A stretch of DNA of 64,000 nucleotides from Patescibacteria group bacterium (GCA_040384485.1 JAZKJH010000003.1:71556-135555), one strand, 5' to 3'; positions 1,717 to 42,200 are shown, numbered from the stretch's first letter. The notes: generated by a model not told the origin, from the letters alone. Translations and numbers: made by a program.

Positions 1717-2154
1717 TTGTACGTTATAATAAAACATATGAATAAAAATATTATATCAACCATTATTGTGGTTTTAATTATTATAGGTGGAGTTTATTGG
1801 TTTAACTCAAGCAAAAAAGTAGTAGATACAACAAATGAATCCCCTGTTGTTAATTCCGGTGAGAACACTAGTCAACCTGGGGCAACGATGCCAGGTTTAC
1901 CGGCGGAACCTGCTGCTACTGAGGCCAGAAAAGATCTTGCTTTAAAACTCAATACTGATGAAAACAATATTCTAATTATGCAGGTTGTGGAAGTTACATG
2001 GAACGACGGATGTTTAGGCCTGGGCAGAGCTGACGAAGGATGTATGCAAGCACTTGTTCCAGGATTCAAGGTTGAGTTATTTGCAAAAGGAAAACTCTAT
2101 ATATACAGAACAGACAAAACTGGTTCTAGCTTAAGAGCTGAAACCGCGATATAG
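1717..2154 (+). CDS. Hypothetical membrane-anchored/secreted protein
   Basis: 145 aa (alternative start MNKNI at 1738); N-terminal hydrophobic helix IISTIIVVLIIIGGVYW, Pro/Ala-rich linker, Cys-containing C-terminal domain; followed by a strong terminator. Confidence 0.5.
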   Translation: MYVIIKHMNKNIISTIIVVLIIIGGVYWFNSSKKVVDTTNESPVVNSGENTSQPGATMPGLPAEPAATEARKDLALKLNTDENNILIMQVVEVTWNDGCLGLGRADEGCMQALVPGFKVELFAKGKLYIYRTDKTGSSLRAETAI

Positions 2155-2168
2155 AAAATCAAATAAAA

Positions 2169-2243
2169 ACCACTCAACAAATTGTTGAGTGGTTTTTTAT
2201 ATAAAATAAAACCCCTGCGTCACAGTTAAGTGCGCAGAGGTTG
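2169..2243. terminator. Back-to-back terminators between convergent genes
   Basis: ccactcaacaaattgttgagtgg + T-run terminates the plus gene. cccctgcgtcac..gtgcgcagagg hairpin followed by a T-run on the minus strand terminates the Ubl operon. Confidence 0.6.
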
Positions 2244-2263
2244 TTGAAAAAACAAAGAACTAG

Positions 2264-2515
2264 TTAGTTACCTCGAACCTTGGAGAAGACCAGGATCTGG
2301 TCGCCATCCTCCATGCTGCCGGTGAGGCTGCTGATCTTGGTGCCGTTAACTCGGACATCGAGGGAATCGCCTCGACCCGAACCACTGAGTCCGGCCTTTT
2401 CGAGACCGTCCTGGTAGGTACTTCCGGCGCTCATGGTGTAAGACGTGATCTTTCCACCAGGGAATGCGCCGATTTTCACAGTGATTGCCTTTTCAGTTGT
2501 ACGCGGTGCTGCCAT
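2264..2515 (-). CDS. Ubiquitin-like beta-grasp protein (ThiS/MoaD/Ub-like), C-terminus ...KVRGN
   Basis: 83 aa from ATG at 2515, preceded by AAGGAGAAGAG SD. The track ORF extends to a TTG at 2569, which I consider less likely. Sequence MAAPRTTEKAITVKIGAFPGG...DGDQILVFSKVRGN has beta-grasp-like spacing; last residues Gly-Asn. Higher GC than the flanking genome. Confidence 0.6.
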   Translation of the reverse strand: MAAPRTTEKAITVKIGAFPGGKITSYTMSAGSTYQDGLEKAGLSGSGRGDSLDVRVNGTKISSLTGSMEDGDQILVFSKVRGN

Positions 2516-2572
2516 TACTCTCTTCTCCTTGGGTTGACGGACATTCGTTAACGTACTGCATTCGAACAATGA

Positions 2573-3271
2573 CTAGAAGTTAGAGGTGTTAACCATCATG
2601 GGCTGAAGTGAAAAAATAATTTCATTCTCCACTTCATCCACAACAGCTTTGCCAACCTTTAACTCTTCTTGACCTTGATGCCAGCGAATTAGCTGCCAAA
2701 CAGCAAGACCTGAAACCACTTCAGCAGTGGACCCAACACTAATGCTGGTTCCACATGCGGAGACCTCGGCCACATCATCGGAATAAAGAGTTTCCTCCCA
2801 TCCCCTGACTTGTCCTGGGTTTGATGGATTCAGAGTATAAATACGTCCACTGTTCTTCCCCATGCGAGTCTCAATCATGAGCTTCACATAGGTTTTGTAT
2901 TTTAGTCCCGTCTTCCAGATCTCCTGGCGAGATGCCATGGTATCGGTCAGAAGGAAAACTACGTCACCAAGACGTTGTGATCCGTCTACTTTTTCTGGAT
3001 GAACAGAAACTTCTGTTCCAGTCTGCTCCCTGATGATATTCATCAAGGCATCGACCTTGGACATGCCGACATGGTTGTTGCCAAAGATTTGATTCGGCAC
3101 GTTGTGTGCCTCAACCTTGTCATAATCCCAAATATGAATATTCGGGATACCAAGCTTGGCGAGTCCCAAAGCGATACGCGAACCGGTCGCTCCAACTCCC
3201 ACTACATCAACCCTTTGATCCCCAAATGTCTCTGGGGAAAAAACTTCGATGTGTCGCATTGTGTCTAGCAA
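2573..3271 (-). CDS. E1-like adenylyltransferase (ThiF/MoeB/E1 superfamily), short form
   Basis: Rossmann VDVVGVGATGSRIALGLAKLG; E1 signature DYDKVEAHNVPNQ; candidate catalytic Cys in EVSACGTSISVG. TTG start with GGAGG SD 5-6 nt upstream; stop is 4 nt from the Ubl ORF. Confidence 0.7.
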   Translation of the reverse strand: MLDTMRHIEVFSPETFGDQRVDVVGVGATGSRIALGLAKLGIPNIHIWDYDKVEAHNVPNQIFGNNHVGMSKVDALMNIIREQTGTEVSVHPEKVDGSQRLGDVVFLLTDTMASRQEIWKTGLKYKTYVKLMIETRMGKNSGRIYTLNPSNPGQVRGWEETLYSDDVAEVSACGTSISVGSTAEVVSGLAVWQLIRWHQGQEELKVGKAVVDEVENEIIFSLQPMMVNTSNF

Positions 3272-3283
3272 TTAACCCTCCTT

Positions 3284-4045
3284 TTATTGTCGTGGTCCAA
3301 AGACACCAGTAAAAAACCATGGTTTGTGCTTGTACTTGTAACCTTTGCCGATCTTCATCGGCATTGGGCGCAAATACTTCACCTTAGCCTGCATTTCAGC
3401 TAGAAGATCTTGCTTCAGTTGTTGATAAACTGCGTTACTGACCCTGGGTCCTTTGACTTTCCACGGCAACTTATCGAACTGAACATTGTTCTTCCAGTCA
3501 TAGAGACTGAAGCTAACTTCTCCTCTGCGGTTAAAAATACCGCGAAGGAAAAAATCAGATCCAAAATCCCGAAACGTATTCATGGTCATATCATCCTGAC
3601 CAGATGGTTCAGTACCACCTGTACCGTGTGAATGACCCCAAAAACGAATGTTGTTAAAAATATCTTCGCCGTTTGGACGTGTGAGCACGTCTTGCATGAC
3701 ACTTGCCATGCTATCCGTATTCAGTTCTGTTTGACCATAGTTAACACTCTGGTCAAACAAAAAGATATCGTCAACAAGAACGTGTTTTCCTAATTTTTTG
3801 GCAGTGCCAAGCCATCCAACTTCCATCTCGATGGCACTGATGATTATGTAAATCTTCAGAATGGCCAGATGACTCAAACTAACAACAGGTATCACGTCGG
3901 GAAGACGCAACATCCTTGCTGAAGTAGGAAACTGTCTCGGCAAAAGAAAACTGTCGGCTTGGGTCCTTGAAATATCCCAACCTGGACCTTGGTCTTCCTT
4001 AGCTATCTCGTCTTTTTCCTCTAGTTCTGGAGCGGCATGATCCAC
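3284..4045 (-). CDS. JAB/JAMM (MPN+) metalloprotease-like deubiquitinase/desulfurase candidate with ~110-aa N-terminal extension
   Basis: EMEVGW ... FWGHSHGTGGTEPSGQD fits E-x(n)-HxHx7Sx2D exactly. GTG start with AAGGAG SD; its stop overlaps the SD of the E1 gene (translational coupling). Confidence 0.7.
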   Translation of the reverse strand: MDHAAPELEEKDEIAKEDQGPGWDISRTQADSFLLPRQFPTSARMLRLPDVIPVVSLSHLAILKIYIIISAIEMEVGWLGTAKKLGKHVLVDDIFLFDQSVNYGQTELNTDSMASVMQDVLTRPNGEDIFNNIRFWGHSHGTGGTEPSGQDDMTMNTFRDFGSDFFLRGIFNRRGEVSFSLYDWKNNVQFDKLPWKVKGPRVSNAVYQQLKQDLLAEMQAKVKYLRPMPMKIGKGYKYKHKPWFFTGVFGPRQ

Positions 4046-4165
4046 AGACTAACTCCTTGTTTTGATGTAAATGTTCACTTCCTACAAAACAGACTACATA
4101 ACTATGCCTATTCTGTCAAGTCCAATTTTGGAGCATGTCGGTAACCCTTGTTATATTTATTAATA

Positions 4166-4208
4166 TGTGTTATGGTATAAAAGGAAAGTCACCCGTGGGT
4201 TAACCCAC
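4166..4208 (+). promoter_or_regulatory. Promoter-like TGGTATAAA (-10) followed by perfect 14-bp palindrome GTGGGTTAACCCAC (candidate operator) just upstream of the RBS
   Basis: tatggtataaaagg (extended -10-like). GTGGGTTAACCCAC at 4195-4208 is its own reverse complement. AAGGAG RBS and ATG at 4221. Confidence 0.45.
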
Positions 4209-4220
4209 AAGGAGCACTGA

Positions 4221-4787
4221 ATGAACACTGCGACGATTGAAATCCCCCGATATGGAAGTCTCAAACTGCACTATGCGACTATGTGCATAGTGGTGTTGGG
4301 CACAATGTTTCAAGTGGGACATTTTGCTGAACATGCTGTGCAGTTTGGAATGTGGCTATTCAGTGACAGGTCAATGCCCTGGATGTCAACGTGGGCAATG
4401 TATCTCGTCCACCAGATTGGTCATTGGGCTGTGCCCGATGCATCTGGTGCAAGGCAGATGGCTGTCGGGATGGAACTGCTTCATCTCGTCGGCAATGGTA
4501 TCTTCTTGGTGACCATTGCTGCTTTTTACAAACATTCACCAACCAAACTTGTACGACAGGCATTTTACGTTGAGGGTTTTCATCTAATTGAGCACTTGTT
4601 GCTCACCTTCTCTGTAATCTATCTGGGAAAACCAATCGGGTTCAGTACTCTATTTGGTAACAGTTCACTTGTTTGGGACAAAGAAGGAGTTGTTGGTTAC
4701 AGGGTGTTTTGGCACTTCGCCATGAATCTCGTACCTTCAATTCTCATCATGAAAGCCATGATGAACATGAGGTCAAAAACTCAATAA
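4221..4787 (+). CDS. Hypothetical His/Trp-rich polytopic membrane protein
   Basis: 188 aa, ~5 hydrophobic helices, repeated HxxxH / H-W motifs (GHFAEHAVQFGMW, HQIGHWAVP, HLIEHLLL); strong terminator downstream (ggtccatgctttcgcatggacc + T-run). Confidence 0.55.
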   Translation: MNTATIEIPRYGSLKLHYATMCIVVLGTMFQVGHFAEHAVQFGMWLFSDRSMPWMSTWAMYLVHQIGHWAVPDASGARQMAVGMELLHLVGNGIFLVTIAAFYKHSPTKLVRQAFYVEGFHLIEHLLLTFSVIYLGKPIGFSTLFGNSSLVWDKEGVVGYRVFWHFAMNLVPSILIMKAMMNMRSKTQ

Positions 4788-4807
4788 AGTTTTCCTGTTT
4801 CAATACT

Positions 4808-4876
4808 CGGTCCATGCTTTCGCATGGACCGATTTTTTTATAAAAAAACAACCCCGTTTATAAGCGGGGTTGGTAA
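4808..4876. terminator. Two face-to-face rho-independent terminators
   Basis: ggtccatgc-tttc-gcatggacc + Ts (plus strand). caaccccg-tttataa-gcggggttg with A-run upstream (serves the minus strand 579-aa gene). Confidence 0.7.
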
Positions 4877-4884
4877 GCCTAATC

Positions 4885-6624
4885 TTAACGGGCGCTGCGT
4901 AACTTAGTTACTATTGCTTCGCCAGTTTGTCGGCTATCAAAACTTCTCAAAAAATCCAAAGACATAGTCACAACAGTCTCTAGTTCAAGTCCGCCCAATA
5001 ACTCTGGAAAGGTGGACGTAAGTTGACCTAATGGCAACTCCCCACTTTCTCCACGCAATTGTGGTGACTGAAACACGCTACCGTCTGCAAACCATATCGG
5101 TAGAAGGTTTTTGAACGTGTTAACTCCGGTGGAGAAATTATACTCGAGTGTAAAATCTCCAATCCAGTAAGAAAGACCGGTAGCAACGTCAGTTGCCTTC
5201 AGTTTTTTTGTCTCAACCTTCAAGACGTCGTCCTTGATTGAAACTTTCTTAACACCATCAAGCTTTTGAACCTCAGCAACTCGTTTCTGGATTAGAGTTG
5301 TGATGCTGTAAACCAGAACTGGAGGCTTTCCTCTTCCAACCAGCTGTTCTTTGGTCTCGAGGTGTTCTCCAAGAGTCTCTGCAAGAGTTCCTTTAAGGAT
5401 AGCCGCCTGGTCAGGTCTTACTCCCTTTCTGGCCTCCAAAAGATCTCTCTCGATTTTAACCCTATTACTTCCGTGGGTTTCTTTAAAGACGCTGATGAAT
5501 CCTGCTTTCACCGTCCTGTCCAAAGCATCCTTCTTTACTGGATACACCATTCTCTTTTCAACAACTGGAAACAGTTCCAGAATTTTCTGATAAGAAATGT
5601 TCTCATTAACTGACTCTACTGCCTTAAGTGAAAAGAGTAGAGCAGCTTCGAACTCAAAATCTCTCAAAAGAGTGAGGATGCCTCTACCCTCTCCATGGCA
5701 CCACTCTCCACCCAAACGGTCTACGTGTGGATGTCCATACTTACCAGAATACCCACCATATTCATGATATGGTCGGCGTGACTTGTTGACAAAGACCGCC
5801 TGACCCCCGTCCCCAAAAGTAAGTTTGATTTCGAATTCACCAAACTCATGAATCTTCTTGGTTTGCGAGTGTTCACAATACATTGGGTGTGTGGTAATTA
5901 ACAGTTGAGTCCCGTCAACTCTGATGTCTTTCACTTCGGGGATTTTGTAGAGGTTATCGATGACTCGATCCGACTCTAATGTATCACCCCCAAGTTTTTT
6001 AAGTTGTGCCTCTAAGGCAACAGCTTGAGTGACTGAACCCACCATTTTTTTTCGATGCACCACCACCAAAGACTTCAAGGGTTGAAGAATCTTGGTGTTT
6101 GGAGCAACGAAGTTACCTTCATACATCTCTTCCAAAGTGGGAAATGCTCCCCACCCAAGAAGTATTAACGTCTCACGCAAAATCTTTCTGTAAATATCGA
6201 GACGTGCCTCAGTAACTGTTCCACCAACAACAGGAAACAGCACATACAACTCATTCTTGTTGATGAGCTCTGCGACTGCATATCCACTTGTCGGATCAAC
6301 AATCACCATGCCTTTTCCAGAAGGTTCAAACAAATAGCCTAACTCGATGTTCGCCTGTCCAGCTACTGATAAACCCCACATCTTTGAGGGAATATCCTGA
6401 AATCCGGCTTCGTTACGAGCCCTGCTATAAAGATGGATTATGAAAGAGGACCTGTCTCTCCTGCCCGGTGGATTATGTTCACCCTGGACATCCCACAGAT
6501 ACAAATCCTCAACTCCATTAACTTCAAACGGTCGACCGACAGTACTTCTGGTGACTTCCAGAAACCTATCCTTCGTCTCGTACCCATGTCCCCAATTGTG
6601 TGGTCTGATATTCATCCCCAACAC
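4885..6624 (-). CDS. Large hypothetical protein with candidate E2/UBC-like active-site motif (YGHPHVDRLGGEWCHGEG)
   Basis: 579 aa. The central segment has HP[NH]-V-D-x6-C spacing similar to the UBC HPN-loop/catalytic Cys (HPNIDSNGSICLDIL). No other recognisable domain from sequence alone. Confidence 0.4.
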   Translation of the reverse strand: MLGMNIRPHNWGHGYETKDRFLEVTRSTVGRPFEVNGVEDLYLWDVQGEHNPPGRRDRSSFIIHLYSRARNEAGFQDIPSKMWGLSVAGQANIELGYLFEPSGKGMVIVDPTSGYAVAELINKNELYVLFPVVGGTVTEARLDIYRKILRETLILLGWGAFPTLEEMYEGNFVAPNTKILQPLKSLVVVHRKKMVGSVTQAVALEAQLKKLGGDTLESDRVIDNLYKIPEVKDIRVDGTQLLITTHPMYCEHSQTKKIHEFGEFEIKLTFGDGGQAVFVNKSRRPYHEYGGYSGKYGHPHVDRLGGEWCHGEGRGILTLLRDFEFEAALLFSLKAVESVNENISYQKILELFPVVEKRMVYPVKKDALDRTVKAGFISVFKETHGSNRVKIERDLLEARKGVRPDQAAILKGTLAETLGEHLETKEQLVGRGKPPVLVYSITTLIQKRVAEVQKLDGVKKVSIKDDVLKVETKKLKATDVATGLSYWIGDFTLEYNFSTGVNTFKNLLPIWFADGSVFQSPQLRGESGELPLGQLTSTFPELLGGLELETVVTMSLDFLRSFDSRQTGEAIVTKLRSAR

Positions 6625-6704
6625 TGTCTCCTTTTGATAAGATTACAAGGTTCGAATCCTTCAATACTAAATCATGTACTGAATAAAAAGTCAAATCCAT
6701 GGAC

Positions 6705-6740
6705 TTGACAAAGCACCACTTTTAGTATTCTATTATTAGG
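6705..6740 (+). promoter_or_regulatory. Sigma70-like promoter for the FAD-oxidoreductase gene
   Basis: TTGACA-n17-TTCTAT/TATTAT upstream of AAAAGGAG RBS and ATG at 6811. Confidence 0.4.
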
Positions 6741-6810
6741 CAATACCCTAGGTAAGACTCGGGTACACAAGTTCTTTGAAAATCACACTGCCAAAAGGAG
6801 ACTCTCGTCA

Positions 6811-8343
6811 ATGAACACGAACCGTCAAGCAACTGCACCCGTGATAGTGAAAACTTTCGCTCCGCAAGGTCTACAGTTCTTGGACTTGGGCGCCTTGCGT
6901 GGATATATGGAGGCCAAGGACTATGACTTGGATGTGGTCTCAAAGTTTGCAGAACGTGGAGTATTTGCTCCCCTGTTTGCAGACTTGGTACTCAGAACAG
7001 GCGGCTTGGATAACGAACTGTTGAATCAGTTCGGCCAAGCACTACAGCATGTTCCCCCAACAAAACTGGAATCATACACAGGTTCTGACACCCAGAACAG
7101 TCGTATCGATTCAGCGATTGCCAACAGTGGAATCGCTCGTGATGTAAAGCGGTATGGTGAAGGGTCAGCAAGTTTCTTTGAAACGAAGTCTGTTATTCCG
7201 ACATCAATCAGAAACGTTCCTATTGCCATCGTTGGCTATGGAGCAGCTGGTATTATCGCTGGATACGCCCTGAGCAAATTGGGGTTCCAAAGAATCACAG
7301 TGTATGAAAAAGGGAAAAATCTCGGAATTTGGAGCTACAAGAACGTTTTTGAACTTTCTCGTAACAATCCTTTGAGATTGCAATTTTTCAACAGTGTTCT
7401 TGATCCGGCACCAGGAGGAGGAATCGAGGTTCGAGACTTCCTATCCAGGCTGGCAATTCTGAACACAGTCGACGCAAGGGTTGTTAAGATCCAGCCAGGC
7501 AAAATGAAGCACAAGCTGGTCTTCTCCGACAAAAGCACGGCCGAATATCCAATCGTGGTTAATGCGGTCGGCTTGGGAAAACCAAGACCAGTTTCTGACC
7601 CCGCACGAATGGTTACGGAAACTGGACAGGCACATGCTGGTGCCAGATGGCAACAGCAATTGAGAGTGGAGGATGTTGCTGGACAACAGATTGTTTTGAT
7701 CGGCTTAGGAAATTCAACAGCCGAAATGCTCCAGCAAATCCACACCCTCATCGACGACGGCTACTATGTCGACTACCGTGTGCTTACACATTACCCAGAA
7801 GAAGCTGTCTACAATCCCTCAACTTACGTTGAGGAAGATGGGCGAACATTCCGGGTGTTTCGAGACACATCAAAACCAAATCTCGTTGACTACCAAGGAG
7901 ATTTGGCACGTTCCAGATATGATTACTTTCGTGCACTACACGAAGGTAAAATCATTTCGGGAGTTAAACGCTGGGAAGTAAAAACGCCAGGAGTCATGGC
8001 AATTTACGGGAAAAACAGAAAAAATCTCGGTAAGTTGCCGTTCGACAAAGTAATGACTCTTATTGGTTATCATCAAGGAAAGGACGAGATGCAAAATCTC
8101 GGATGTTCCTATGATGAAAAGCAGGGCAGTGGAGTGTTCGACTATGATGGCGAAGTCGCCGGCATGCCAGGAAACTCCGATCCAAAGAAACGCCTTCACA
8201 AGGGATACTTTGGGTTTGGTTCTATCCTGGAAACACCCCTTAACCCGAATGCGATCGTAATTCCTGGAATGCTTCACCGCATCGGGGACCTGGCATTCAG
8301 TGTGATTATGCGAGCAGCAGAATTTCGAAATAAAGATCTGTAG
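6811..8343 (+). CDS. FAD/NAD(P)-binding oxidoreductase (flavin monooxygenase / pyridine-nucleotide-disulfide oxidoreductase-like)
   Basis: 510 aa; first dinucleotide-binding motif IAIVGYGAAGIIAGYAL, second VLIGLGNSTAEM; GC-richer than the host genes. Confidence 0.6.
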   Translation: MNTNRQATAPVIVKTFAPQGLQFLDLGALRGYMEAKDYDLDVVSKFAERGVFAPLFADLVLRTGGLDNELLNQFGQALQHVPPTKLESYTGSDTQNSRIDSAIANSGIARDVKRYGEGSASFFETKSVIPTSIRNVPIAIVGYGAAGIIAGYALSKLGFQRITVYEKGKNLGIWSYKNVFELSRNNPLRLQFFNSVLDPAPGGGIEVRDFLSRLAILNTVDARVVKIQPGKMKHKLVFSDKSTAEYPIVVNAVGLGKPRPVSDPARMVTETGQAHAGARWQQQLRVEDVAGQQIVLIGLGNSTAEMLQQIHTLIDDGYYVDYRVLTHYPEEAVYNPSTYVEEDGRTFRVFRDTSKPNLVDYQGDLARSRYDYFRALHEGKIISGVKRWEVKTPGVMAIYGKNRKNLGKLPFDKVMTLIGYHQGKDEMQNLGCSYDEKQGSGVFDYDGEVAGMPGNSDPKKRLHKGYFGFGSILETPLNPNAIVIPGMLHRIGDLAFSVIMRAAEFRNKDL

Positions 8344-8958: not shown

Positions 8959-9030
8959 GCTCCCGTAGTTTAATGGATAGAATGTTGGCCTGCGAAGCTG
9001 GCGATCCAGGTTCGATTCCTGGCGGGAGCA
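8959..9030 (+). tRNA. tRNA, 72 nt, anticodon loop CTGCGAA (reads as Arg-GCG); anticodon stem has 3 G-U pairs, so it is possibly a variant/pseudo-tRNA
   Basis: Acceptor GCTCCCG/CGGGAGC; perfect T-arm CCAGG-TTCGATT-CCTGG; D-arm GTTT-AATGGATA-GAAT. The anticodon stem TTGGC/GCTGG is mostly wobble pairs. Confidence 0.55.
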
Positions 9031-9076
9031 CAAATAAAAAAACCACTAACAGTGGTTTTTTTATTTGTGCTCCCGC
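9022..9076. repeat. Perfect 26-bp inverted repeat (55 bp with 3-nt loop) that includes the last 9 nt of the tRNA; functions at least as a terminator
   Basis: GCGGGAGCACAAATAAAAAAACCACT-aac-AGTGGTTTTTTTATTTGTGCTCCCGC, arms exactly complementary. Confidence 0.8.
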
Positions 9077-33284: not shown

Positions 33285-36200
33285 TTATTCAATTACTTCC
33301 TCAATAACTTCTACAGTTCGTGTCGCATAACTCCAGTTACCCCCTTCATCCATAGCTGAGTAAACTATTGTATGTGTAGCTGTTGCATTGGTAGATATAG
33401 ATACTGAAAGCATATCTACTCCGTTTACGTTGAAGTAGATTCCCAGGTTGTTGTTTGCATTGTTTTCATCATCTAGGTCTGTGACTGTTGCTCCTAGGTC
33501 TGAGTAGTTAGAGTTTAGTGGTATTTGTAGGTTAGCACTTCCGGTTATTGTGATGACTGGTGGGATTGAATCGGTTGGGCCTTCTTCTATAGTTTCAGGT
33601 TCTGGCTCAGGATCTCCTCCCCCTTCTTCTGGTGCCTGTGTTCCACAAATTCCTGCAACAGAAACCATTGCCCCGTTTCGCATCTTCATACAATATGGGT
33701 CATTTGTCACTTCGTCGTATATTGTAATACCTGTTGGGTTTGAACTACTTCCTACAGTTAGTCTGTCTGCAATAATATTTTTAAAGTAAGCAATACCATC
33801 GACGAACTTAGCCCCTACAGTTTCAAACTGATTTACAAATCCATCCAAAACATCGTTGAAATTTATTCCAGTACTTTCTGGTGTACTACTTGCAACAATT
33901 TGTTCTAGATTTGTTAGTCGAGAACCAGTATTTAAATCTAATTCTTGAATAGCATTTATTGCGGCTGCCAGTATGGTAGTTGTATTTACTTGCAAAGTTC
34001 CACTTGGGTTTGTGTTTACTGCATCAGGAATAGCTTGTTGGATGTTCTGAGCAATGAATCCAGAGTATAGAACTCCATTATCATACAAACCAGAATCTGT
34101 TTTCCATGAGTATGTTTGTGGGTTGATTTGATTTATTGCAGACAATCCTGATGTAAACTCGCTTTGTATGTCTTTTAGTCTTTCGTCTGAGGTACAACTC
34201 ATAGTACCGGAACCATTTGTCTGAATACCTCCACAAGAAACAAGGTTTGTGACAGCGAATGTTCCTCCCCCTATTACTGACGGACCATCACTTTGGAAAT
34301 AGTTAGTTAGACCATTTGCAGCGTTATACATATATAGAGAAGTGTCTCCGTCTGACTGTATTTCAAGACTGAGCTTGTTAGAACTGCCAACTTTTACAGC
34401 AAAAGGTACAGTACTTACAGCACCTGCTACTGTTAGTTTATTAGTTGCGTCAGTAGTTCCAATACCAACATTACCCGCAGAATCTAATGTAAACGACTTA
34501 GTAAACACACCTCCTGCTCGACTTAAAAGATGCAGTTTTGTGCCACTATTTTGCATTCCAATTACACCGTCGGTCCCGTCATTACCGAGCATAACCGCGT
34601 TCACATCAACACCGAAAGCTCCTGAGATTGTAGCTATACTGTTGGTTACACCACCGGATACAGCTAGTTTTGCATAACTAGAAGGGATACTTGTTCCCAC
34701 ACCAACTCCCCCATTTGCCAAAACAGTTAGCAAATTTGCACTGGCATTATTATCTACAACCAAGGCGTATTTGGCAGAATTCACTCCTCCTGCTTTTATA
34801 TATACACCATTTCCGTCGTTTGCCTCTGTGTTATAGAAAGTCGCGATACTTCCAGCTACCGAACCAGAGACACTTAGTTTGCTGTCTGGTGACGCGGTTC
34901 CAATACCAACATCTCCACCTTGCTCAATAGCCACTCTTATATCTCCTCCAGAACTCGCAAACTCCAAGTTTGGTGTAGCATTGTTTGAAGAATACACGTT
35001 CCATTTTTGTGTCCCAGCCTGACTATATATTAGCTGTGCATAGTTAGATGTTGTTCCAGCATTTATATATGTGGACTGATTCCCAGAAGCAGAAAACCTA
35101 ACACTGTCTCCGAGTATATCTAGTTTATGAGCCGGATCAGCTGTTCCAATACCAATATCCCCTGTAGATTCAATGACCATCTCATCATTTCCTGCGTTGT
35201 TGTAATTAAGCCTAAAGGTGTTGTCTGTATGGTTATACATTCCCCAGAAGTTTGTTGAGTTTGTTGCCTGCAAACCGACAATTCCTTTTACTTCCAATGT
35301 TTGAGTTGGACTAGAAAGTCCTATTCCCACCCCACCTGTAGCAAATATTCCCAACTTGGTACCGTTTGATTGTAAGTATGCCTGCGTTGTTGAATTATCG
35401 TTATCCAAGAAAGTAAGTGTTCCTTCGTCCACACTTCCGTTACTTCTACCTATGATACTGATTCCATTTGCGCCACTGTTTGATTGTACTGAAAGTGGAA
35501 ATGTAGGGTTTGTTGTTCCAATTCCAACATTTCCACCAGCCTTAATTCTCATCGCTTCAGAAATTGCTGTGACAGCAGTGCTAGCCTTTACACCAAACAC
35601 CAAATCACTAGATGTATTTACCGCACCACTAGTCAAAACAGCCCCGATGTATGCCTGGTTTGTGTTTGCATTGTTAGCAATCCATCTATATACAGTTCCT
35701 GTCCAATCACCCACTGTACCTGCAGTTGGGTTTACTATTTCTTGTTGGAATGCAGTTCCTATTGCACCACCTGTTATTGCATTGGAAATAGTTAATCTCG
35801 CACCTGGGTCAGTCGTGCCAATACCAACATTGCCACCTCCAACTTGTAACGAAAGGTTAGCTGTAGCAAAAGTTCCTGTATATCCTTGAATTTGAGCTCC
35901 GGCCGATCCTCCACCTAATCCGACAGCGTATGAACCTGAACCTTGGAAAAATCCTGAGTAGGTATTACTTGTATCTGCAACAGTCAGTCTTGCTGCTGTT
36001 GGTGTTGTTGTTCCGATCCCAACGTTGCCCGTACTTGCAACTCTCATCCTTTCGTTGTTGCCATTAGTATAAAATCTAATAACACCACTAGCATCTGTAG
36101 CGGCCAAAGAAAGTCCTCCCACAAGATTTGCCTCGAGTAACATACTGTCTTGTATGTATCTTCCACTGGTTGTGTACCCGGATCCAAATGTATACAAATA

Positions 36201-39200
36201 AGAAGTCCCGTTATTTGTTGTTTGACCCAAAGCTGTGTATGCACCAGTTCCCGTACTTTGGTTAAGTATGTTTATAGAAGTTACAGCGTCTTGTGTTTTT
36301 GCAACTTGCAAAAGTTGTGTTGGTCCTGATGTTCCTACTCCCACACGACCTGTATTGTCGATAGTAAAATAATCCGAAGTTCCTAATGTTCCACTTCCTG
36401 AAATTTTCAACTTATCACTATCAGAATTATCTATACCCATTGAATATTGTTGCCCACCAGTTAGGTACCATGAAATACTAGTGTCCCCTGTACTGTTTTG
36501 TTCCAACATTGCCAATGGGTTTGTTCCGGAAGTATTTTTATAAACTGTTAGTGGCCACTGTGGACTTTCTGTTCCAATGCCAACCTCACCATCTCCATCA
36601 ATAGTAAGTCTTGCTGTTCCTGCAGTTGCGAAAGCAATTGAAGTTGCAGCAGGTCTGTACATACCAGCTGATGCGTCATTTGAAAAACCGTAAGCAACAC
36701 TTGAAGCAGAACCATCTGACGTTCTTAGTGCGCCCGCAACACCTATTTGTCCAGAACCTACTTTGTAAAAACCAGTTGAAGTTTGCGAACTAAATGCTAT
36801 GGAGGGTGTTCCAACTAAACCATCTGCCACATAAACTGCAGTTGAAGAAGCTGTTCCTTGTACATCTAGTTTTGTTTGAGGATTAGTTGTTCCAATACCT
36901 ACATTTCCATTTGTACCCTCAATAGTTAAGTCAGGATATGTGTTTGATGTGCCTAAATTTAAACTAGTTGAACCTGGAGAACGCACTGTTCCACTACCAA
37001 GAAACAGTCCGTTTACTGACAAAGCATCGTTAGCAGAATCCCAAGTTAGTTGAGTTGTGTCTGTGGTTAGAGCACCCGCACTGTTATACAAAACTAGTTG
37101 ACCTGTATTAGCACCAAGAGCTGGAAGAGTCGCCCTAATCCCTCCGTTTACATCAAGGGTTGTGCTTGGACTGGTTGTTCCAAGCCCCACAAAACCACTA
37201 CTTCCCAATATACTTAGAGCGGAAGTTGTGGTCGTTGCAGTACCTGCAACAGTTGTTGTTGCTAAATAGAAGTTTCCTCCTGCATTTCTCATTACCCATT
37301 GTGAAATACCTCCTCCTGCAGAGAGAGCTAGTTGTGGTGCTGTAGCTGAGGTTGGGTTAAGTATCCATTGTGGGGTTGTTGTTCCGATACCAACGTTTCC
37401 TGTTGAACTAATAACCATTCTTTCGTTGGTAGGTAATGTTGCCACGTTTCCTATAGTGCTTCCAGCGAAAAATCTAATATTTGCAGTTGACGCAGTTATA
37501 AGATCTTCTGAGCCCCCGTTATTAACTGCTATAGTAGCCCGAAGGCCGCCACTTGGTTCCATAAGTGCTATCTGAGCATTTACACCACCGTTGATACCTT
37601 GAATCTCTAACTTTCTTGCGGTAGGTACTCTTCCAATACCTAACCATGCAGAAGATGCATCTACAACTAAAGCATTTGTACTCCCTGCTTCACCGACTCT
37701 AAAGTCTCCGTCAATATCAAGAAGATATGAAGGTGTACTGGTTCCAATACCCACATTACCAGCGTTTGTTATTCTCATCTTTTCAGTAGTCACGTCAGAT
37801 GTGTATGATCCCCCAAATGCACCTGCTGTGTAAAAAGACAACCCTGTCTCACCAGAAGCACCTTCACTTATACCAGACAATTTTGCACGAACACCTGAAG
37901 CAGCAAACGTTTGACCAGATGAAGCATCACCACCAAAAAATTGGACAGACCCCAGAACATCATCAGCAACAATTGCAGAAAAAACATTACTTAGTCTAAG
38001 TATTGATGTGTTTGAAGTTGCAGAAGAAACTTCAAGTTTTACTTGAGGGGTGCTGGTTCCAACTCCAACATTACCTTGAACAAGTAGTCCGTTTGAAGGA
38101 GCAGCTGTCGTATCATATCCAGCACCAATTGTAGCTCCTCCGGAAACAGAAAGACGAGAACCTGGTAGCAGCTCACCTACCCCCAAAGAACCATCGTCCC
38201 TAAGAGCAAGAAGGGTTGTCTGATCAGAGTTCTCAACATACATCGCATATGAAGCATTTGTATTGCCTCCACCTCTAGTAATAAACTTATATCCGGTAAG
38301 CGGGACACTTCCTATACCAACACTACCAGATGCATCGATGATAAATGGTGTGGAATCCGGGGAACTCGAGTCCTCAACAACAAAAGAAGGTGCTGACCCT
38401 GTGTTCGTTACCGAGAGTTTGCCCCACGGTGTTGTTGTTGCTATTCCAACATTTCCTGAAGAGCTAACAACTAACCTATAAGCATCACTAACATGTCCTA
38501 AACCTATGCTTTGCCCATCAGCTGCTTGCATTATTATTGGGTAGTTTGGTGCGTAAATTTGGAAAGCGGAAATATCTCCGCGAGATTGCATTACTGCTTG
38601 TTGAGTTGACCCGTTGTAAAAGGAAACTCCTGAATAACCCCCTGAAGAGCCGTAAAATCTTGAGGTGTCGGAAACAGATGTGTCTCCGATATATGCTAAA
38701 CCATTAACTTGAAGCTTTGCCACTGGACTTGCAGTCCCAATACCAACATTGTTGGTTGAATAGTCATATACCAAACCTGATGTTTCGATTGCTAACCCCC
38801 CAGCGATTGTTGATGTCGCATTTGTGGATGTGGCATTGAAGTTTCCAAAAGTTGGTGTTGAGGTTGCGACTAATGCACCAGATGAATTGGTAGAGAGTAA
38901 TGAGTTGATTGCTGTGCCCGATAAAGTAATAGCCGGAGTAACCACACTTGTTCCTACATACAACGTTCTTGGTCTAGTTGCTCCTGAGGCACCGATATCG
39001 AGAGTATTGTCTGTTGCAGCAAGAAAATGTCCCGTAGCATTTATTCTCCATTTTTGAGCACTGCCCGTCATAAACAGCAAATCTCCTGTGCTGTGTTGTC
39101 CGTATATTTCTTGAGCATTTGCAAATCTAATAGATGAACTATCACTATCAGTTCGCAACTCTCCTGTTCGGTCTCCAGCTCCGGTGCTCAACCTCCTCCA

Positions 39201-42200
39201 CTCCATAACAACACCGGAGCTTTCTCGATCTATTTGCAAAATCTGATCTTCAGTAGCAACACCTGCAGCACCAGATATGTGGGTCCGGTAACTTGGAGTC
39301 GTTCCAATACCCACATTGGCAGATGTTGTCATTCTTAATACTTCAGCAAGCGTGCCCGCTCCATTTGAAGTTTTAAAAATTAAATCTGACTTATTGTCAT
39401 TGCTTGCATAATTGTTTGCATAAATTCCACCTAGCGAGGTTGCCCCTGACCCATAAGTAAGCAAAGCTTCTTCTTGTGGGTTTCCGTTAGTTACAATTAG
39501 CCTTCTTATTTCCCCTGATACGGCTAATTTTTGAAGAGGGTTGGTTGTTCCGATACCCAGGTTCCCAGCTGTAGATAATGTCATTTTTGTAAGACCGTCT
39601 CCAGTCAAGAAACCTAAGTTGCTAGCTCCAGTAAAATCATATAACCCAGTGCCCACCATCCAGTCATTTGTTCCGGCAGTTTGGAATTGAACAGCAGAAG
39701 AGTTCCCAGAAGAGCTGCTTCTGTTTAACAAGGCGAACGCGCCGCCGTTATCCGCAGTAGCATTTAGAGTTACATTTCCATTAGTTGCCTGGAAACGAGC
39801 CTGGTTACTTATACCAGACATATGAAACTGTGCTGCTGGAGTCGCGGTGCCCAACCCAACTCTTCCGCTATTCTGCTGAACCACAAACTGACTTGTTCCT
39901 ACAGCCAGTCCTCCTGTTGCGATAGTTGACGTTGCTGTTGTCGATGTTGCATTGAAATTTCCAAATGTTGGAGTTGACGTTGCCACTATCGCACCTGATG
40001 AGTTTGTGGAAAGCAGTGAGTTGATTGCTGTGCCGGATAAAGTCAGAGACGGAGTTGAAATAGATGTTGTTGCCGTAAATATATTTGCAATAACAGTTCC
40101 ACCGTCAAAAAATCCTGAACCGGCAACTGATAGTTTATAACCTGGAGTTGTTGAGCCGATTCCAACATTTCCCGCAGAACTAAGGAACATTCCTCCTGCC
40201 CCACCACTACCATTTCCATAGAAAGCCAGGCCTCCGCCTCCACCAATATTAGTGATCTGTCCATCAATAGTCCCAGATCTCTTGATCAAAATTCCAGGAA
40301 AAGAACCACTGACTGAATCCAGGACAAGAGTCGCATTTGTTCCGGAAACGTAAAGATTATTTTGGCTTACGTTTTGAAAAGCCATTGTTCCTGACCCATC
40401 AGCAACTGAGAATTTTGTGTAAGGTGATGTAGTTCCTACTCCGACATTACCAGTTGCAGATGTTAGGTTAAGTCCACCACCTGAAGTGCTTATGGTTGGA
40501 GCGGAACCGTTTGATCCAGCAAGTGTAAGATAGTTTGTAACACCAGCAGTACTCAAAACACGAACTTGTTCCACACCACCAGCTCTCATATGAATACCTA
40601 AAGAAGAAGGACCGCTATCAAGATAAAGCTCTCCGGTAGGACTAACGGCCAAATACCCGTCAGGGTTTGTGATGTTTGCAGCTGCGCCAGATCCCTGAAT
40701 AATGTTAGAGTTTCCAAAAATAGTCCAACTCCCAGCCGTTAGGGTTTTTCCACCCGTTATTGAAACACTACCCCCACTTACTGTTCCCGTTAAAGCAATA
40801 TTACCGTCAACAGAAAACTTTTCGTAAGGACTTGTAGTTCCAACTCCAACATTTCCTCCAGCCAAAACTGTCAATCTGTTTAAACCATTTGTCTGCAAGT
40901 TCAAATCAAAAAAACCTGTGTGTCCAAAGTTGGCCGCAGTTGGTCCTGTCACCAAGTACGAAGAACCTGAACCCGAAAGAGCCACATTTCCATCAGCAAC
41001 TTGTAGTTTATAAAACGGATTACTTGTCCCAATACCAACATTCCCACTATTCTGTTGCACCACAAACTGACTTGTTCCAACTGCGAGACCTCCTGTTGAA
41101 ATAGTTGAAGTAGCAGTAGTAGATGTCGCATTAAAGTTTCCGAATGTAGGAGTTGAGGTTGCAACTATTGCTCCTGATGAATTTGTAGAAAGTAGTGAAT
41201 TAATTGATGTGCCAGAAAGTGAAATGGATGGAGTAACAACAGAGGTTCCGAAGTATCCTGTTCTCCATGTATTACCTACTGCTCCTATGTCTGCATTATT
41301 ATCTGTAGTGGGAACAATATTTATTCCATTTCCAAGAGTTAGATTTCCAGTTGAGAGTCTCATTCCCAAAGTTCCATTTACTGCCCATCTCAATGCACTT
41401 GATTCTAGATACATTCCGTATCCAGAGTTGCTTGCAAAAGTATATGATGGTGTTGTCACAGAACCAACACTTGCTGTAATTGTAGAAGTTGCAGTAAGAT
41501 TACTTGCAACAACTGTTCCTCCGTCAAAATATCCACTACCAGCAACTGATAGTTTATAACCAGGAGTTGTTGAACCTACACCGACATTTCCGCCGCTCGT
41601 TATCCTCAATCTTTCTGAGTACGTGCCCGCATCTCTAGTTGCGAATGAAAGCTCAGCACTAACAGCACTTGGGGTATGGCTTGTAAAAATAGCGTTAATA
41701 CTAGCTCCAGTCCCAAGAACTCCATTCGTATCCATTGTCAGAAACCTATTTTGAGCAAAATTATTATTTGTGGTATCAGTGTTTATTAAATTCGATGACG
41801 TGTCGTTAGAAAGTCCGCTAACGGTGTATGTAGAATCAGAACTACCCGAAACAACGAGTTTTGCACCTGGAGCTGTCGTCCCAATTCCCACACGGCCCGA
41901 TGAAGTCACGTTGAAAGTGGACCCCCCAATTGATGCCACAGAAGAGAAAAGATTGGTGGATGAAGCTGTTGTTGAAAATAGATTTGTTGTGGTTGCTGAT
42001 ACTCCAGTTGAATTAACAAAGCTAAAGTTTTGTAGAGTTGTAGAACCTGTTAGCAACAAGTTTCCAAAATTTCCTGTTCCTGTTGTTGTTATGTTTCCTG
42101 ATCCGGCGTTGATAGTGTTGTTGTTTGTAACAATTCCATTTGTCCAAGTTCCGGCAATTTCTAGCGCAGTTGTCCCTGTTCCTGTGTTACTTATATACAA

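Follow-up and report, generated by a model that had tools for sequence, protein, structure and literature searches.

A number of E1/E2/ubiquitin-like protein (Ubl) families are already known from bacteria: CBASS, Bil, Bub and the other operon types of Iyer et al. 2006. Prior work arranges them in the classes 6a (E2-E1-JAB plus MBL), 6b (CBASS), 6c, 6d (Bil) and 6e (Bub). The present work concerns a stretch of 64,000 nucleotides from a Patescibacteria group bacterium (GCA_040384485.1 JAZKJH010000003.1:71556-135555), hereafter the window, in which a gene for a protein of 579 amino acids (aa), here called X, lies in an island beside genes for a Ubl, an E1 and a JAB/JAMM metallopeptidase (JAB). 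An initial annotation of the window had proposed that X is a candidate non-canonical E2 with extra domains, and this proposal is supported by the register of X on the E2 enzyme UBE2A, by an hhalign probability of 76.6% against E2 sequences and by gene linkage. It withstood every refuting condition that the annotation had set. The open reading frame is real, and its neighbors are as that annotation described them. We favor, with a probability of about 0.68, the explanation that X serves as the E2 in a Ubl conjugation system of four components (X, JAB, E1 and Ubl); the findings that carry it are a divergent fold, the register of a Cys, an internal duplication (R1/R2), the linkage of the four genes and the intact catalytic motifs of the partners. 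It is probable that a whole bacterial protein-tagging system, previously undescribed and common in uncultured bacteria, is encoded in the island.

By gene content, the closest described system is Bil (bacterial ISG15-like; type '6d' of Iyer et al. 2006), which consists of BilA (Ubl), BilB (E2), BilC (JAB) and BilD (E1). Like the system described here, Bil has a separate Ubl, JAB/JAMM peptidase, E1 and E2 with a catalytic Cys, and no E3, the E2 being presumed to choose its targets directly. The two differ as follows. The E1 of the window is a single domain of 232 aa and does not have the Bil E1 architecture. All four functions are found, but where Bil has a stand-alone E2, the E2 part here sits in a large multidomain protein of 440-1,100 aa that also contains N-terminal domain (N-domain) repeats, a coiled coil and a second, inactive copy of the E2 part. 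The last residues of the Ubl are G-N, where Bil has G. Moreover, in the 6d E2s the classical His is absent and a His follows the Cys, whereas X has a P-H pair before it.

Another point of comparison is the archaeal SAMP/UbaA/JAMM machinery, of which a SAMP1/HvJAMM1 system has been reported (PMC4443979). As in the island, the E1 is small and of the ThiF/MoeB type, a JAMM peptidase is present, and the Ubl of the island is most like SAMP2. The archaeal system differs in two respects: SAMPylation proceeds without an E2 and SAMPs end in GG, whereas the system described here has a Cys-bearing UBC-like protein as an obligatory partner and a Ubl that ends in G-N. In Bub (6E), the genes form Ubl-E2, JAB-E1 or E2-E1 fusions, a DUF6527 protease is present, Ser replaces the catalytic Cys, and the proteins act through oxyesters; the X system is distinct from Bub, as fusions and DUF6527 are both absent from it and its E1 and X each retain a Cys. 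CBASS conjugates CD-NTase and has no Ubl. None of the architectures or models of Bub or of CBASS Cap2/Cap3 fits the X system. In PADLOC, X and JAB matched no model, and the E1 matched CBASS E1-E2 models only, among the matches listed.

What, then, points to an E2 within X? The candidate domain, R1, follows the N-domain and a helical linker (Table 1). An AlphaFold model from a 4-sequence alignment had a predicted local distance difference test (pLDDT) score of 52 and was unusable; an alignment of 78 sequences gave an AlphaFold2 model of residues 1-365 with a pLDDT of 89.5. In this model, R1 consists of a helix (215-226), strands (231-295), the motif loop and three helices (311-349), i.e., the succession of helix alpha1, four-stranded antiparallel meander, active-site loop and helices that defines the UBC fold. 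The initial annotation had likewise placed the motif after a beta-rich segment and before helices. The first helix, which is also the last one of the linker, aligns with E2 helix alpha1; the hhalign alignment begins at E2 residue 4.

Profile comparisons give the same register. When all PDB sequences were searched with a profile built from 31 isolated R1 domains, UBE2A was the top match, with heiGkFrieis...mqaPhVkedGkaCl aligned on FEDGTFKLTIEF...MFHPNVYADGSICL; within this alignment, GkFrieis...aPhVkedGkaCl falls on GTFKLTIEF...HPNVYADGSICL. In the profile search and in hhalign, C309 is placed on the catalytic Cys88 of UBE2A and Cys85 of UBE2D2, and P299-H300 on the P-N of HPN. Against seven human E2s, whose sequences were entered by hand, hhalign assigned R1 a probability of 76.6% (P = 2.1e-5) over 116 columns that run from alpha1 through the Cys into alpha2; the negative controls gave 0.3% (N-domain against E2) and 0.5% (R1 against Ubl). 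As in canonical UBC domains and the Ubc13-Mms2 pair, the common fold comes with the same loop and Cys register, a preceding G-x-F-x-I-x-I strand and a following helix. Sequence identity between X and eukaryotic E2s is only 13-18%, and HPN is [A/H]-P-H in the X family. The eukaryotic systems also differ in that the cognate E1 is minimal here and the Ubl C-terminus is Asn.

The motif region of R1 reads YGHPHVDRLGGEWCHGEG, and the active-site loop translates to HPHVDRLGGEWCHGEG. Along the loop, H298-P299-H300-V301-D302 are followed by six residues and then C309, exactly the HP[NH]-V-D-x6-C spacing quoted in the initial annotation. The leading His did not hold as a family feature: most of the wider family has Ala at position 298, and the nearly invariant positions, ∼94% kept, are P299, H300, C309 and G311. 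The Cys lies ∼10 residues past an HPN-type motif in which Asn is His in most members. Counted from the residue before P, the spacing to the Cys is 10 in the wider family, as in canonical E2s, and X has one residue more. A Zn site formed by H298, H300, C309 and H310 was considered as a family feature and rejected, since H298 and H310 are Ala and Leu, respectively, in most members.

Several points weigh against X as the E2 of a conjugation system. A thioester, a conjugate and a target of X are predictions, and the place of Cys309 in three dimensions is deduced from sequence alignments. The structural scores for R1 as a UBC fold are moderate. A Foldseek comparison, of the kind called for in the initial annotation, gave nothing significant against PDB (best E = 0.023; UbcH7, E = 0.5). 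The profile match to UBE2A has an E-value of 1.5 and alone is not significant, and the human sequences behind the hhalign comparison were, as stated, entered by hand. The Asn of the E2 HPN motif is replaced by His in X. The Ubl ends in Asn, not Gly, and we know of no precedent for an E1-E2 thioester relay from such an end. Last, the SAMPs, which are the nearest relatives of the Ubl, are conjugated in archaea without an E2. With all of this taken into account, we are fairly confident that R1 is a UBC-fold domain with a Cys at the catalytic position, and we consider it probable, with a degree less assurance, that X acts as a true thioester-forming E2.

The extent of the X family came to light through exhaustive profile searching, because a word-indexed search found just 3-5 proteins, even when started from a 78-sequence profile. 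The three close homologues found in this manner (47, 40 and 30% identity) are all from Patescibacteria or Parcubacteria, and the motif YGHPHVxR..WCxGEG is invariant in them. The exhaustive search of 1.84 billion cluster representatives returned 1,114 family proteins at E ≤ 1e-3. About 20 of these are full-length orthologues; the others have 1-5 N-domains (∼150 residues each), a coiled coil and a C-terminal domain with the consensus HEIGxFRIxI...VRWFNLTR...APHVxxxGxACLGN...AIQFVESVN...WP. Of the 151 family proteins retrieved, 142 contain the pattern xP[H/N][VILA]-x4-10-C-x-G exactly once, so that the conservation of the Cys, which the initial annotation had made a touchstone of its proposal, amounts to ∼94% of these 151. 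The motif is therefore no coincidence.

Library scans did not recognize this family. X itself had no match in Pfam (E ≤ 0.1), NCBIfam, PADLOC, PHROGs or the PDB sequences; 78 of its relatives had none in Pfam (E ≤ 1e-3), NCBIfam or PADLOC; and 31 isolated R1 domains had none in Pfam even at E ≤ 10. The curated E2 models (Pfam UQ_con, Prok-E2_A-E) do not match the X family. Homology to an unrelated enzyme family, the outcome that would have undone the E2 proposal, did not appear in these scans either, nor did the scans of the island yield a second E2 candidate besides X, in line with the initial annotation. Foldseek against BFVD gave marginal matches only, to uncharacterized or unnamed viral proteins. 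Full-text literature searches (DUF6008; ubiquitin-like systems in bacteria of the candidate phyla radiation (CPR) or in Melainabacteria) returned no description of the family. A tblastn search with a family member found no match in phage and plasmid collections, and the IMG/VR viral contigs, likewise scanned, contained no relative; consequently, there is no evidence for a phage- or plasmid-borne system.

Another feature of X is its internal duplication. R1 (225-352) and R2 (452-575) are homologous (hhalign probability 98.3%, E = 2e-14), and R2 has FQSPQLRGESGELPLGQ at the position where R1 has YGHPHVDRLGGEWCHGEG, so that neither the P-H pair nor the Cys is left. From its sequence, R2 is a UEV/RWD-like, presumably inactive partner of R1. 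In Melainabacteria/Obscuribacterales, each long Cys-bearing gene is directly followed by a gene of 286-344 aa that lacks the motif and matches the R1/R2 region. Together, R2 and this separate gene make the active/inactive UBC-like pair a conserved theme, fused or split according to lineage. Ubc13-Mms2 likewise has a Cys-less paralogous domain beside the active one, and polyubiquitin-like precursor genes are a further likeness; here, unlike in the eukaryotic E2/UEV pair, the two domains are joined by a helical linker or lie in adjacent genes, and extra N-domains are present. The initial annotation had suggested that both terminal extensions of X might serve target recognition or act as effectors. 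For the C-terminal part this did not hold, as it is the Cys-less UBC-like duplicate and not an effector.

The N-domain is probably a recognition or assembly module. Its conserved positions are only G84, G105, A118, E119 and L126, and it has no invariant catalytic residue. Two other identities were tried for it and discarded: a Ser-His hydrolase (PSGxG, HHD), the residues of which are not conserved, HHD being missing from the X of the window; and TatD, the sole match in a profile search against PDB, which was judged spurious.

The duplication also bears on whether R1 is catalytic at all. R1 might be a non-catalytic domain of the UBC/RWD/UEV type, with X acting as a scaffold, a Ubl receptor or the main substrate, with conjugation carried out by the E1 only, as in SAMPylation, and with a structural or regulatory Cys. 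RWD and UEV domains, however, are characteristically without Cys, and ∼94% of members retain the Cys and P-H of R1, exactly in the E2 register. Their joint loss is confined to the second copy, which is clearly secondary, and one paralogue bears the full HPN...C motif. For these reasons we regard a non-catalytic R1 as unlikely. This paralogue is a second full-length X that adjoins the first in two loci (L023, 9810-11471; L024, 7456-9117); its motif, HPNINDNGWC in place of HPHV...WC, is the literal E2 signature (HPN...C). Separately, some metagenome contigs carry runs of four to six consecutive X-like genes (L060, 3-9702; L044, 159-8590). Such arrays suggest paralogue expansion, possibly with diversified target specificity.

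If X belongs to a conjugation system, its partners should travel with it. In the three loci with close homologues, six genes are alike: X, JAB, E1, Ubl, a DUF6008 protein and a flavoprotein oxidoreductase of ∼510 aa, the last two varying in order and strand. Hidden Markov models built from these loci were used to screen further ones. In all 17 distant loci, from genomes and from Logan, X occurs with the same JAB and E1 (E1 E-values from 1e-62 to 1e-110), and a recognizable Ubl is present in most of them. Fifteen of the 17 come from named genomes, namely Saccharibacteria, Parcubacteria, Melainabacteria/Obscuribacterales, and metagenome-assembled genomes (MAGs) of Flavobacteriaceae, Thermoanaerobaculia and Gammaproteobacteria. 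The same partners accompany X in four further orthologue loci (L021-L024). In a metagenome scan, JAB adjoins X in 27 of the 29 loci with at least 0.9 kb downstream, and JAB and E1 are both present in 15 of the 17 with at least 2.5 kb downstream. With E1, Ubl and JAB joining X in nearly all examined loci that had sufficient flanking sequence, the island probably does encode the complete set of E1, E2, Ubl and deubiquitinating-type peptidase that had been suggested for it.

The two remaining genes behave differently. DUF6008 is present in the three close-homologue loci (L001-L003), the nearest Parcubacteria relatives, and in none of the distant ones, and the oxidoreductase is found only in the window, L001-L003 and L022. 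Because they are confined to the close relatives of the window (plus L022 for the oxidoreductase), these genes are clade-specific accessories or mere neighbors. This distribution is relevant to a very different explanation, a sulfur-carrier or small-molecule pathway of the ThiS/MoaD, CysO/Mec+ or QbsE/QbsD type, in which the E1 would thiocarboxylate the Ubl, JAB would trim it, and X, the oxidoreductase and DUF6008 would be biosynthetic. Such a pathway would fit the minimal, ThiS/ThiF-like Ubl and E1, and the flavoprotein oxidoreductase and His-rich membrane protein that adjoin them in the window and its closest relatives. Yet the oxidoreductase and DUF6008 are missing from all distant loci, while X, JAB, E1 and Ubl are constant; poly-Ubl genes and a UBC-fold partner point toward protein tagging; and the Ubl end is GN, not the GG of a ThiS/MoaD protein. 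Rhodanese, cysteine desulfurase, ThiG and MoaE were not found in the gene lists of the loci examined, and cofactor-synthesis genes are not linked. This explanation is, in our judgment, highly improbable.

The partners themselves appear fit for conjugation. Across 21 loci, the E1 keeps its GxGxxG loop, D49, K72, D110, R115 and Cys173 (in 'SACG'), and the JAB residues E75, H138, H140, S148 and D151 are invariant, so that both enzymes are predicted to be active. The strict linkage of X to an E1 with an invariant Cys lends indirect support to the predicted Ubl thioester on X. The E1 is one ThiF domain (residues 17-206), 228-238 aa long in nearly all loci, and its nearest solved structures are UBA5, ThiF, PaaA and MoeB. 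The Ubl profile matches SAMP2 (5lda_B, E = 8e-6) and also MoaD, ThiS and TtuB.

The Ubl end reads [R/K]-G-N in essentially every locus (window and L001-L020), with one G-Q and a few cases of one residue past N. The last column of the SAMP2 alignment pairs the Arg of ...RGN with the Ser of ...SGG, and by extension the Asn falls at the final Gly of SAMP2, which points to the Asn as the C-terminal residue that is activated, and not as a cap. In Melainabacteria/Obscuribacterales, the Ubl gene consists of 2-3 head-to-tail repeats with the junction ...LLLRPVRGN|VDLGK... (L014, 5094-5966; L015, 3848-4498; L016, 5208-5969; L020, 5088-5969), an arrangement likened to eukaryotic polyubiquitin. In two Saccharibacteria loci (L011 and L013), a second Ubl-like repeat and a long C-terminal extension come after the Ubl.

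Could the Asn be the key to another chemistry? The only E1-like enzyme known to act on a C-terminal Asn is MccB. It activates this residue through a succinimide, with no thioester (PMC12250964). By analogy, the Asn at the end of the Ubl might be turned by the E1 of the island into a succinimide or a nucleotide phosphoramidate instead of a thioester, with X acting on the product or being unrelated to transfer. That Asn (once Gln) ends the Ubl in every locus, aligned with the last Gly of SAMP2, speaks for MccB-like chemistry. It accords poorly with the rest of the evidence: the E1 had no PDB match to MccB at E ≤ 1e-3, the E1 holds an invariant Cys, the substrate is a folded 70-aa beta-grasp protein, sometimes a poly-Ubl in need of a peptidase, and a UBC-like Cys domain is strictly co-inherited. 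We hold it to be very unlikely.

With X as an E2, how might the system work? JAB would trim the Ubl precursor, in some lineages a head-to-tail repeat, and might also reverse conjugation. The homodimeric ThiF-type E1 would adenylate the Ubl C-terminus, the thioester probably forming on the invariant Cys173, and a transthioesterification would then hand the Ubl over to Cys309 of X. From there, X would transfer the Ubl to a lysine of the target with no separate E3 involved, as has been proposed for the Bil E2s. One to five N-domains, carried on a coiled-coil stalk, may serve target choice or enzyme assembly, and the Cys-less R2 may hold the donor or the acceptor Ubl, like Mms2, the UEV partner of Ubc13. 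Defense, proteostasis and regulation are candidates for the biological role.

In three loci, two of them independent, a single-ring AAA+ ATPase is encoded directly upstream of X on the same strand (L021, 5724-7502; L023, 6379-7869; L024, 4025-5515). Residues 155-570 of the L021 protein align to Mpa (5kwa_A, E = 3e-56), and we take the N-terminal part to be a coiled coil and an OB domain. The position of these genes hints at an unfoldase that handles tagged proteins. A bolder proposal would join all of these elements, i.e., poly-Ubl precursors, an E2 with a built-in or adjacent UEV-like partner, Mpa/PAN-type unfoldases adjacent in some genomes and a Ubl activated at its C-terminal Asn, into an unrecognized, widespread prokaryotic ubiquitination-like pathway. 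The first three elements would liken it to the eukaryotic system, and the last would set its chemistry apart. In such a pathway, the Asn, once activated by E1 and E2, could cyclize to a succinimide, and the product would be a novel type of linkage between proteins or a self-limiting tag. We regard it as speculative and rather unlikely in this full form.

If X is indeed an E2, it adds a new E2 family to those from which the origin of eukaryotic ubiquitination can be reasoned. The features relevant to this topic are the active/inactive UBC pair, the poly-Ubl genes and the occasional linkage to a proteasomal-type AAA+ unfoldase. The family stayed invisible to Pfam, NCBIfam and PADLOC despite more than 1,100 cluster representatives, and most of the taxonomically placed loci belong to uncultured lineages with small genomes (Patescibacteria, Saccharibacteria and Melainabacteria). 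The invariant C-terminal Asn of the Ubl raises a concrete chemical question, and direct reconstitution is possible because the system has just four genes.

The coordinates of the features are collected in Table 1. JAB, E1 and Ubl are downstream of X on the same strand. X is 100% identical to a protein of a Patescibacteria MAG (P0001, 'MAG: hypothetical protein V4690_02615'). The NCBI record of this protein has 576 aa and its match begins at residue 4 of X, so that the annotated start is probably M4 (nucleotide 6615). Similarly, the true start of the Ubl is probably M19 (nucleotide 2515).

Table 1. Genes of the island and domains of X, in window coordinates
Feature	Position	Strand	Basis or remark
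Gene X, 579-aa multidomain E2-like protein	4885..6624	(-)	Open reading frame call, GTG start
N-domain of X, alpha/beta, residues 1-157	6154..6624	(-)	1-5 tandem copies among relatives
Long helical, coiled-coil-like linker of X, residues 158-226	5947..6153	(-)	Helices 177-213 and 215-226 in model
R1 of X, divergent UBC (E2)-fold domain with candidate catalytic Cys, residues 227-355	5560..5946	(-)	
Active-site loop of R1, HPHVDRLGGEWCHGEG	5686..5733	(-)	Translation; C309 at nucleotides 5698-5700
Second helical linker of X, residues 356-451	5272..5559	(-)	Helices 370-428 and 441-453 in low-confidence first model; poorly conserved
R2 of X, Cys-less duplicate of UBC-like domain, residues 452-579	4888..5271	(-)	hhalign, translation
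JAB/JAMM metallopeptidase	3284..4045	(-)	Weak Prok-JAB match; intact HSH-x7-S-x2-D (HxH-x7-S-x2-D)
Minimal single-domain ThiF-type E1, 232 aa	2573..3271	(-)	PF00899, E = 4.7e-20
SAMP2/ThiS-like beta-grasp Ubl, end ...KVRGN*	2264..2569	(-)	Profile match to SAMP2
DUF6008, His-rich membrane protein	4221..4787	(+)	PF19471, E = 3.9e-29
Flavoprotein-type oxidoreductase, 510 aa, two dinucleotide-binding domains	6811..8343	(+)	Weak NAD_binding_8, Pyr_redox and FMO-like matches

The six-gene island (window 2001-8000) has a GC content of 0.44-0.46, compared with ∼0.37 in its flanks, and lies between a tRNA-Ser gene (1363-1450) and a tRNA-Arg gene (8959-9031). Both the composition and the flanking tRNA genes are consistent with horizontal acquisition. 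A second GC-elevated stretch of the window contains a giant open reading frame of 3,878 aa (33285-44921, minus strand). The product bears a Peptidase_S74 (endosialidase chaperone) domain at its C-terminus as well as a bacterial Ig-like domain, suggestive of a surface or tail-fiber-like protein.

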